A stretch of 64,000 nucleotides of DNA from the NCBI GenBank assembly GCA_041686075.1, contig JAWLEO010000004.1, positions 11,006 to 75,005 of the forward strand, given 5' to 3'. Shown in pieces: positions 10,913-53,275 of the stretch. The position numbers were made by a program, and so were the translations under genes. The notes under the pieces were generated by a model, which ran no database searches, had not been told where the DNA came from, and saw only the letters and a list, made by a program, of their open reading frames with translations. How positions within the stretch are numbered: the first letter of the stretch is position 1; each line of letters opens with the position of its first letter. This DNA comes from Bacteroidales bacterium (GTDB lineage Bacteria > Bacteroidota > Bacteroidia > Bacteroidales > VadinHA17).

Positions 10913-11039
10913 TGGAATAATGGAACCAAGGATCCCGAGCCCTACTCCCCTCGGCACGGTTCTTCCACCTTCGCCTTTCAAGCTCCGGCGGACAAAGGGA
11001 GAACCGCGCCAGCGGGGTGAGTCAATGATGGAATAATGG
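10913..11039. repeat. GC-rich hairpin element flanked by an 11-bp direct duplication (TGGAATAATGG)
   Basis: TGGAATAATGG occurs at 10913-10923 and 11029-11039. Clamp stem is GGCACGGTTCT (10953-63) / AGAACCGCGCC (11000-10) followed by AGCG. Inner arms are CCACCTTCGCC (10965-75) / GGCGGACAAAGG (10987-98). Confidence 0.75.
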
Positions 11040-30162: not shown

Positions 30163-30362
30163 GGGATGTATATTTCAATGGAATTGATTTACTAAAATAC
30201 TGATTTTGCATGCCAAATAAAATTTTTACAATAAACAAGGATCGTTCCCCTTGTTAACCCGATTCAGCACTTTAACAATTAAACAGTTCAACAATAAACA
30301 GGGGCATGATTTTTGCAATTAATTTATTGACTGCTTATACATTAATAATTAATGCAGGTGTT

Positions 30363-53098: not shown

Positions 53099-53275
53099 AT
53101 AACTGATAACCTTGTCCACTGTAGCAAGGCACGGATCTGGAACCGAGGAGCCTGAGCTTGCTATGGCAAGCGATGGTGACGAGCTCGACGAAATGAGTTG
53201 GCACGAGTCTGGAGACTCGCGCCAGCGATTTAAGTCAGATCCGCGCCAGCGAAGGAGGACTCATAACTGATAACC
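53099..53275. repeat. nested GC-rich hairpin element flanked by a 13-bp direct duplication (ATAACTGATAACC)
   Basis: ATAACTGATAACC occurs at 53099-53111 and 53263-53275. Outer clamp is GGCACGGATCT (53128-38) / AGATCCGCGCC-AGCG (53237-51). Inner clamp is GGCACGAGTCT (53200-10) / AGACTCGCGCC-AGCG (53213-27). An extra stem GCTTGC-tatg-GCAAGC lies at 53156-71. Confidence 0.8.

Follow-up and report, generated by a model that had tools for sequence, protein, structure and literature searches.

Nested GC-rich hairpins in a Bacteroidales genome as probable REP elements of a RAYT transposase

Canonical repetitive extragenic palindromic (REP) elements, such as those of Escherichia coli TnpA_REP (4ER8) and the REPINs of Pseudomonas, are GC-rich imperfect palindromes that lie mostly outside genes. 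They carry an unpaired, conserved 5' tetranucleotide and a stem irregularity that is essential in E. coli, and they are associated with a RAYT gene that keeps a conserved chromosomal position between inverted flanking copies of the repeat, an arrangement called a REPtron. E. coli TnpA_REP binds the tetranucleotide base-specifically and no longer binds once the stem irregularity is repaired (PMC3479197). A Bacteroidetes-specific RAYT subclass, 2.6, equivalent to Bertels group 5, has been described (Quentin et al. 2018, PMC6006769); its REPs were found by manual inspection and are called just 'atypical secondary structures'. The 16-mers that flank group 5 RAYTs are roughly as abundant as those beside insertion sequences (Bertels et al. 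2017). Here, we analyze a nested GC-rich element at 53099-53275 of a 64,000-nucleotide stretch of Bacteroidales DNA (GCA_041686075.1, contig JAWLEO010000004.1), hereafter the window. The element falls into the REP/RAYT class and is closest to the subclass 2.6 REPs. Its hairpins are very probably the cognate single-stranded DNA substrates of a RAYT of the HUH/Y1 family encoded elsewhere in the same genome, with the block as a whole being a stack of family modules.

The repeated hairpin, H, reads 5'-CGCT-GGCGCG-NN-TCT-CC-AGA-NN-CGTGCC on the minus strand of the window (5'-CGCTGGCGCGGATCTCCAGATCCGTGCC when the CGCT-foot strand is written as an oligonucleotide) and GGCACG-NN-TCT-GG-AGA-NN-CGCGCC-AGCG on the plus strand. 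The strand recognised would be the minus strand, on which an unpaired CGCT foot precedes an 11-bp stem (GGCGCG-NN-TCT paired with AGA-NN-CGTGCC), in which a G.T wobble is invariant, and a centre of 2 nt. Folded as DNA, the 28-nt unit forms an uninterrupted 11-pair stem of -11.0 kcal/mol on the minus strand, compared with -9.3 on the plus strand. Much of this design recurs in the subclass 2.6 REPs, for which Table S1 of PMC6006769 gives GCTAGCGCGAGCGTCCCGCTCGTG and GCTGGCGCGGGCGTCCCGCCCGTG from Aequorivita sublithincola (AFL81591.1) and a 122-nt multi-hairpin structure with GTCTGAAGAC cores from Belliella. Both groups share a 5' foot (GCTRG there, CGCTGG here), a CGCG..CGTG clamp, a G.T wobble at the same pair, a variable complementary inner stem and a short loop. 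Both also flank a Bacteroidetes RAYT with YIH[QN]NP and SS motifs and have further copies elsewhere in the genome. They differ in the inner stem and loop, which here is NN-TCT-CC-AGA-NN, and in the HUH motif of the enzyme, DH[SF]H here and NH[LIV]H there. Compared with canonical REPs, H carries CGCT rather than GTAG as its foot, and its clamp is conserved across orders instead of being lineage-specific.

Three units in the window share the clamp, and all of them lie where a first-pass annotation, made from the sequence alone, had placed them. In the outer unit of the element, GGCACGGATCT (53128-38; GGCACG-GA-TCT) pairs with AGATCCGCGCC (53237-47; AGA-TC-CGCGCC) and is followed by AGCG (to 53251); the inner unit occupies 53200-53227 as GGCACGAGTCT-GG-AGACTCGCGCC-AGCG; and the third, at 10953-11014, has GT/AC as its variable dinucleotide. 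The 3' half AGANNCGCGCCAGCG matches exactly three times in the window against 0.30 expected, a number reached by none of 100 shuffles. The first-pass annotation had proposed a search for further copies, and scanning a collection of genome contigs, one genome per species, with the full clamp pattern returned 93 loci, ~80 of them in Bacteroidota, with ~100 copies, most commonly in the 28-nt form. The hosts are Bacteroidales and Rikenellaceae metagenome-assembled genomes (MAGs), Rufibacter, Sabulibacter, Pontibacter, Dawidia, Cyclobacteriaceae, Lentimicrobiaceae and one Flavobacteriales MAG. High-GC matches outside Bacteroidota (Ralstonia, Streptomyces, Chloroflexota, Bryobacteraceae and others) have long unstructured loops and were set aside as chance. 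By a crude open reading frame (ORF) call, 92 of 104 copies are intergenic.

The stem of H covaries strongly. Across 90 distinct copies, 98.9% of cells are paired, with 46 and 36 double changes at the two variable pairs; none of 500 shuffles had as high a covariation score, and only 22-54% of the cells of slid controls are paired. When the clamp alone is fixed in the search, the inner five pairs are nearly always complementary, even in wholly different stems such as GAAGT/ACTTC. When the wobble position is left free, G.T in the minus-strand reading is found in 95 of 96 copies. Of 95 copies, 77 have CGCT and 90 have NGCT as the unpaired 5' foot, and all 95 have the CT adjacent to the stem. The earlier proposal that the stem is selected for pairing is borne out by these figures; read from the minus strand, the constant A.C mismatch of the plus strand becomes a G.U pair.

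Covariation of this strength, a conserved wobble that is a standard pair on one strand only, and very stable folds are also what can be said for a structured RNA selected at the RNA level and read from the minus strand with its G.U pair, be it a small RNA, a cis-regulator, a terminator or a stabiliser of mRNA. Both strands of 53085-53280 fold far more stably than shuffles (z = -4.2 for plus and -4.9 for minus), and secondary mRNA effects are mentioned for E. coli REPs in the introduction of PMC3479197. We nevertheless consider this explanation quite unlikely. H has no preferred orientation with respect to the genes beside it (22 convergent, 13 divergent, 18 and 12 co-directional), and both genes flanking the unit at 53128 are antisense to the G.U strand. 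Rfam covariance models gave no match at gathering score anywhere near either window site and, at E <= 10 over the site, only two chance-level matches, both outside the element; a scan for promoter and terminator consensus sequences found nothing at the element, terminator-like tails included. Moreover, copies occur inside a RAYT coding sequence (L027) and sites are present or absent between close relatives, while the foot, the wobble and the inverted RAYT flanks are all accounted for by recognition of DNA. Given the unbiased orientation and the missing Rfam match, a reading of the selected structure as RNA finds no support, although secondary effects of H on mRNA are possible. Nested GC-rich intergenic hairpins of this kind in Bacteroidota can be labelled REP/RAYT rather than candidate riboswitches or small RNAs. 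The defining sequence or array features of attC sites, CRISPR repeats and group II intron domains are absent, and these three classes were dropped.

The link between H and a transposase is found at the RAYT genes themselves. All-against-all clustering of the ORFs around the ~80 loci yielded only common housekeeping-type families, with no recurrent neighbour or adjacent transposase, and a six-frame search for the HUH...Y motif revealed two RAYT-like genes touching H copies. At L015 (2362-2928), a 188-aa protein reaches 114 bits with NCBIfam REP_Tyr_transpos (cut-off 80), 38.8 bits with Pfam Y1_Tnp and, with transpos_IS200, a score below the cut-off (24.7 vs 55). Foot-strand H copies and tandem half units lie upstream of this gene, and an inverted H lies right after its stop codon. 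A homologue that is 75% identical, P0005, is encoded in GCA_964562315.1 (L181), a MAG whose contig CAZLTM010000322.1 (L002) matches the window locus base for base; P0005 is also present in run SRR31818008, the source of L001. Inverted H copies surround the RAYT gene in L015, L176/L178, L180/L181 and L183, five genomes in all, as CGCTGGCGCG..CGTGCC upstream and GGCACG..CGCGCCAGCG just past the stop codon. In the comparison of L176/L178, L180/L181 and L183, a reversed composite of the X type described below is found upstream of the gene as well. The setting is also shared: upstream lies uvrB in every contig long enough to include it (L015, L176, L180/L181), and downstream, wherever genes were called there, lies a Pyr_redox_2 gene (L176, L180/L181, L183).

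P0005 retains the HUH motif, WQ, YIHSNP and a YSS tail, and its best PDB match is 4ER8, E. coli TnpA_REP. The HUH histidines, WQ and Y-I-H-x-N-P are invariant across eight homologues. RAYTs that are 75-92% identical to the L015 protein keep H, whereas those at 46-52% are flanked by other hairpins. Among RAYTs at around 50% identity, L184/L185 have GGCGTGGATTTGAAATCCACGCC and tandem half units, L189 has CGCTGGTGTTGATCTCCAGATCAACGCC, L187 has units of the GTAG type, and L188 has a further inverted pair. The inverted H flanks, together with the change of hairpin at distant RAYTs, conform to a REPtron pattern with co-evolution of enzyme and repeat. The element in the window is, as first proposed, small and non-autonomous; rather than a self-contained curiosity, it is best described as a member of the REP family of a RAYT transposase that would act in trans.

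The Pfam Y1_Tnp match is common to RAYTs and to the IS200/IS605 transposases of the same HUH/Y1 superfamily, and insertion after a short specific TGG without inverted termini resembles IS200/IS605 targeting. H copies might, on this basis, be ends or remnants of insertion sequences of the IS200/IS605 type moved by a multi-copy TnpA_IS200 and not by a domesticated RAYT. The likeness extends to IS200/IS605 elements and their non-autonomous derivatives more broadly, since neither they nor H copies have terminal inverted repeats, and since single-stranded hairpin recognition and insertion beside a short specific sequence would apply to the H family as well. However, the flanked gene scores as a RAYT, with 114 bits for REP_Tyr_transpos and a score below the cut-off for transpos_IS200; it is not bounded as a mobile unit and has no tnpB or second ORF alongside. 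Its conserved position beside uvrB in several genomes is the behaviour of a RAYT rather than that of a hopping insertion sequence, and the repeats vastly outnumber the gene. We regard an IS200/IS605 origin as most unlikely, and as the least probable of the alternatives weighed here.

At L027 (4058-4447), a RAYT-like ORF holds a full Y/H/X composite within its coding sequence just past the HUH motif, and the frame stays open. At L189, the RAYT belongs to a second lineage (P0012, MAG233), and the hairpins on its flanks are of a variant clamp family (GGTGTT..AACRCC) with a CGCT foot. The RAYT gene of Aureibacter tunicatorum (L187, 1160-1500) is followed by at least six tandem units of ~57 nt, each with a GTAG-footed hairpin, GTAGTCCAAGTTGTAAACTTGAACTAG.

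The 151-nt block at 53112-53262 is made of three stacked family modules: a Y module, an outer H that is split in its loop after TGG, and an X module of ~95 nt that is inserted there and carries an H of its own. All three read on the minus strand. The left arm of Y (TTGTCCACTGTAGCAA, 53112-53127) and its right arm (AAGGAGGACTC, 53252-53262) enclose the outer H as TTGTCCAC.. and ..GGAGGAC, and in the fold GTCC of the left arm pairs with GGAC of the right. The corresponding family module consists of an arm TTGTCCRCCGTAGCAW, which recurs beside H in many loci, an H hairpin and an arm AAGGTGGA; L103 has GGAGGGAGACTC at the place of the right arm. Between the Y arms, the 3' arm of the outer H on the RAYT strand (plus-strand GGCACGGATCTGG, 53128-53140) is parted by X from the 5' arm with its CGCT foot (plus-strand AGATCCGCGCCAGCG, 53237-53251), which is assigned by sequence and by the foot statistics of the family; the variable GA/TC dinucleotides are complementary across the 98-nt loop. 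X itself (AACCGAGG ... GACGAGCTCGACGAA ... inner H ... ATTTAAGTC, 53141-53236) sits in the outer loop after TGG, and homologous copies with the same ends are found in L009, L013, L027, L038, L066, L067, L074, L088, L180 and L183. The inner 28-nt H at 53200-53227, identified by sequence and DNA fold, reads CGCT-GGCGCG-AG-TCT-CC-AGA-CT-CGTGCC.

Across the family, X has a fixed order of parts, namely AACCGAGGAACCTGAG, a variable small hairpin, GGTGACGAGCTCGACGAA, 7 nt, an H hairpin and GGGTGAGTC. Its ends are constant in 11 copies from nine genomes, and it is nearly always preceded by TGG. X lies inside an H loop in the window, L027, L180, L183 and, judging from whole-block alignment, L013; in L009, L038, L066, L067 and L088 it lies inside (AATGGAAT)n or AATGG arrays. 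The window block aligns over its full length with the L027 composite (68% identity) and with others, which makes the nesting a family architecture rather than a local accident. Matching of half units by brackets gave 83 simple complementary hairpins, 9 non-complementary ones, 14 long-loop pairs and 54 orphan right halves that are often in tandem. The NN dinucleotides are complementary in 13 of the 14 long-loop pairs, across 21-98 nt of inserted material. The first-pass annotation had explained the nesting by repeated insertion of a unit into itself. Insertion into a hairpin loop is indeed supported by the complementary long-loop pairs, but the inserted part is not another copy of the same unit; it is the distinct ~95-nt X module, which is arranged in this way in other genomes too.

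This modularity separates the family from described systems. Canonical REPs form inverted doublets (REPINs) or alternating bacterial interspersed mosaic elements (BIMEs), whereas the composites here are hairpins within loops and tandem half units. The subclass 2.6 paper (PMC6006769) has no X or Y modules, loop insertion, tandem half-unit arrays or phylum-wide spread, and the literature searched on RAYTs of Bacteroidota and on nested REPINs contained no description of a nested X/Y architecture. Additions to that literature are thus the X/Y modularity, the loop-targeted nesting, the arrays of half units and a clamp that is conserved across orders.

Several kinds of array accompany the modules. 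Tandem arrays of the foot plus 5' arm half unit, for example CGCTGGCGCGGATCTCT plus a spacer, have a period of 22-26 nt and occur at L015 (2200-2300), upstream of the RAYT gene in L176, L178 and L180, and in L007, L047 and L080. Upstream of the RAYT at L184/L185 (52% identity) there is the same kind of half-unit array, built from the different hairpin of that lineage. At least eight AATGGAAT units stand directly beside X in L066 (minus strand, upstream of X), and such units adjoin X in L040, L067 and L088 as well. Y modules are bordered by hexamer arrays of the AGCCTTAGCCTCAGCC type in L020, L026, L059, L070 and L090. Two candidates were rejected. A GTAG inside the left arm of Y (CTGTAGCAA) might have been a canonical REP foot, but it varies (GAAG, ATAG, GGAG) and is not adjacent to the stem, and a possible X remnant near 30177-30233 proved unrelated on reading.

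The 151-nt block is bracketed on the plus strand by exact copies of the 13-mer ATAACTGATAACC, at 53099-53111 and 53263-53275; these are the only two exact copies in the 64-kb window, the match extends to 15/16 once the preceding bases are counted, and the right copy directly adjoins ATG 53276. The upstream gene encodes a NapC/NirT cytochrome fused to an FGE-sulfatase domain, and the downstream (GFO) gene encodes a GFO/IDH/MocA oxidoreductase with a Tat-type N-terminus (RRSFL); 13-mers and genes alike agree with the earlier description. Orthologues of the GFO gene taken from metagenomes reveal a polymorphic spacer. L096, L097, L101, L104, L105 and remoter relatives have an empty spacer; in L005/L098, where the flanking protein is 88% identical, a 62-nt H shares its GA/TC with the outer unit of the window; and only a degenerate right-half remnant is left in L099/L100. 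In L103 (~2430-2490), a Y module contains a different hairpin (GGTGTTGGGCGAAGCCCAACACC) of the GGTGTT..AACRCC type, indicating that two REP lineages use the same site. Both the empty L096 and the occupied L103 have a single copy, ATAACTCATAACT, beside the ATG, and comparison with the two copies of the window identifies a genuine local duplication of the 13-mer. This duplication is unique to the window insertion and is no family flank.

The third unit reveals a comparable polymorphism. The genes on either side of it, for a deoxyhypusine-synthase-like protein and EF-Ts, are convergent, and the unit forms part of an X-type module (AACCAAGG ... GGGTGAGTC, 10924-11023, minus strand) that was delimited by sequence, family comparison and half matching. 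The 36-nt loop of its H (10953-11014) carries a reversed Y-arm hairpin (TCCACC..GGCGGAC). It too is bracketed on the plus strand by a direct repeat, TGGAATAATGG, at 10913-10923 and 11029-11039. Of the orthologous tsf spacers, those of L193/L194 are empty and those of L191/L192 contain another hairpin of the family. Comparison with other loci relates the left flank to the (AATGGAAT)n arrays. Since arrays of the AATGGAAT type border X in several genomes, and since the right flank is missing from the empty orthologous site, the 11-mer is no target-site duplication.

[quoted passage not shown] The exact 13-nt repeat and the orthologous empty site of L096 with its single copy, a site that annotation had proposed to look for, fit such an origin, as does the higher frequency of flank repeats of at least 9 nt, which accompany 12 of the 147 family clusters and 5 of the 735 mismatched controls. 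Those long repeats are, however, mostly short-period arrays or parts of elements; the 11-mer around the third unit is a family-level flank and is missing from the empty site; L103 is occupied and yet has one copy of the 13-mer; and X and Y modules are nested in loops with no duplication. The ends of the element (AACCGAGG.. and ..GAGTC) are not inverted repeats, and ORF clustering and the motif search around the loci disclosed no recurrent neighbouring transposase besides the RAYT. A MITE in this sense is therefore very unlikely. Correia and RUP elements are MITEs with stem-loop potential. Like H, these stem-loop MITEs are small, non-coding, foldable intergenic repeats that are present or absent between relatives; unlike H, they end in inverted repeats that match a DDE insertion sequence and regularly duplicate the target site, both as family features. 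As to the claim that the flanking duplication marks an insertion, the local duplication is real, but a target-site duplication of the family it is not, given the single copy in the occupied L103 and a tandem duplication in L101, where the element is missing.

That duplication lies ~50 nt upstream of the GFO start (locus ~940), where the empty spacer of L101 has an exact tandem 14-mer, CAATAGACAATAAT twice, which could be a footprint or a product of replication slippage. The L098 spacer has TAACTTG three times. Together, these repeats indicate that the GFO spacer also duplicates without the help of an element.

Several observations weigh against assigning H to a RAYT. Firstly, the foot is CGCT, and the canonical GT[AG]G tetranucleotide is absent 5' of the hairpin. 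Secondly, inverted doublets of the REPIN type are not the dominant form in a tally of single, split and orphan halves, in which doublets were not counted separately. Thirdly, the ~100 copies come from partial genomes and represent loci and copies found rather than copy number per genome, and the search and seed pattern accounts for part of the clamp and foot invariance in the alignment. The RAYT flanking evidence spans five genomes, with the Cytophagales copies (Rufibacter and others) outside that comparison, and it is by analogy that H would be mobilised by the RAYT. Finally, HUH/Y1 chemistry makes no duplication, so that RAYT action does not explain the exact 13-nt flanking repeat, which should not be read as a signature of the mechanism.

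On the RAYT reading, which we favor, the enzyme would bind the foot, clamp and wobble on single-stranded DNA, on the model of E. coli TnpA_REP and IS200/IS605. It would then cut and rejoin DNA and thereby spread the modules, a step likewise modeled on those enzymes. As targets it would prefer hairpin loops that are exposed (TCTGG^AGA) and, in AT-rich short tandem arrays, TGG^A sites. Base-specific binding of the foot and a need for the stem irregularity, as in E. coli TnpA_REP, may explain why foot and wobble are invariant. The guide rule of E. coli, in which foot positions 3-4 predict the cleavage dinucleotide, did not fit the Y junctions, and no claim is drawn from it. More tentatively, and with rather less than even confidence, an ancient, phylum-wide RAYT-REP system of Bacteroidota may grow recursively, with the REP loop TCTGG^AGA as the preferred target of X and Y. 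Such growth could give rise to hairpin-in-hairpin stacks, half-unit arrays and short-period arrays distinct from REPIN doublets, and it might involve a repair step that duplicates ~13 nt of flank.

The occurrence of the same clamp in Bacteroidales, Cytophagales and Flavobacteriales suggests a very old partnership of RAYT and REP. For work on RAYTs, H offers a defined substrate for non-GTAG recognition, in which the foot is CGCT, the clamp includes an invariant G.T wobble and the inner stem is free, and the loci provide a natural data set on the places where such elements insert, namely hairpin loops and TGG^A sites. H repeats may also contribute to contig breaks in short-read assemblies. The short-read contigs L001, L177 and L182 start inside H repeats (position 1), which would fit an assembly-breaking copy number.

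In Cytophagales (Rufibacter, Sabulibacter, Pontibacter, Dawidia), a second hairpin is found ~10 nt upstream of the clamp hairpin; its core, AGTCTGGAGACT, is constant, and its outer stem covaries freely, as in GGGTAGTCTGGAGACTACCC. This two-hairpin module lies in the left flank of L006, L011, L018, L023, L029, L030, L032, L041, L045, L050, L053, L057, L060, L071, L078, L081, L082, L085 and L087, and it was not seen among the Bacteroidales copies. In the tsf - deoxyhypusine synthase spacer of L191/L192 (~2340-2480), a clamp-less hairpin of the Y type (TTGCCCACCGAACTTCGAATAGCGAAGGTGGGA) and a AGCCTTATCCTTATCCTCAGCC array stand at the place of the third unit of the window.

At the GFO site, the element is a very stable structure of ~150 nt between two co-directional genes and may influence their expression, although any effect on the polycistronic mRNA of the two would be a by-product of the RAYT system. 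At 53252-53259, 17 nt before ATG 53276, the right arm of Y (AAGGAGGA) looks like a Shine-Dalgarno sequence; given the family consensus AAGGTGGA, this resemblance is probably a coincidence.

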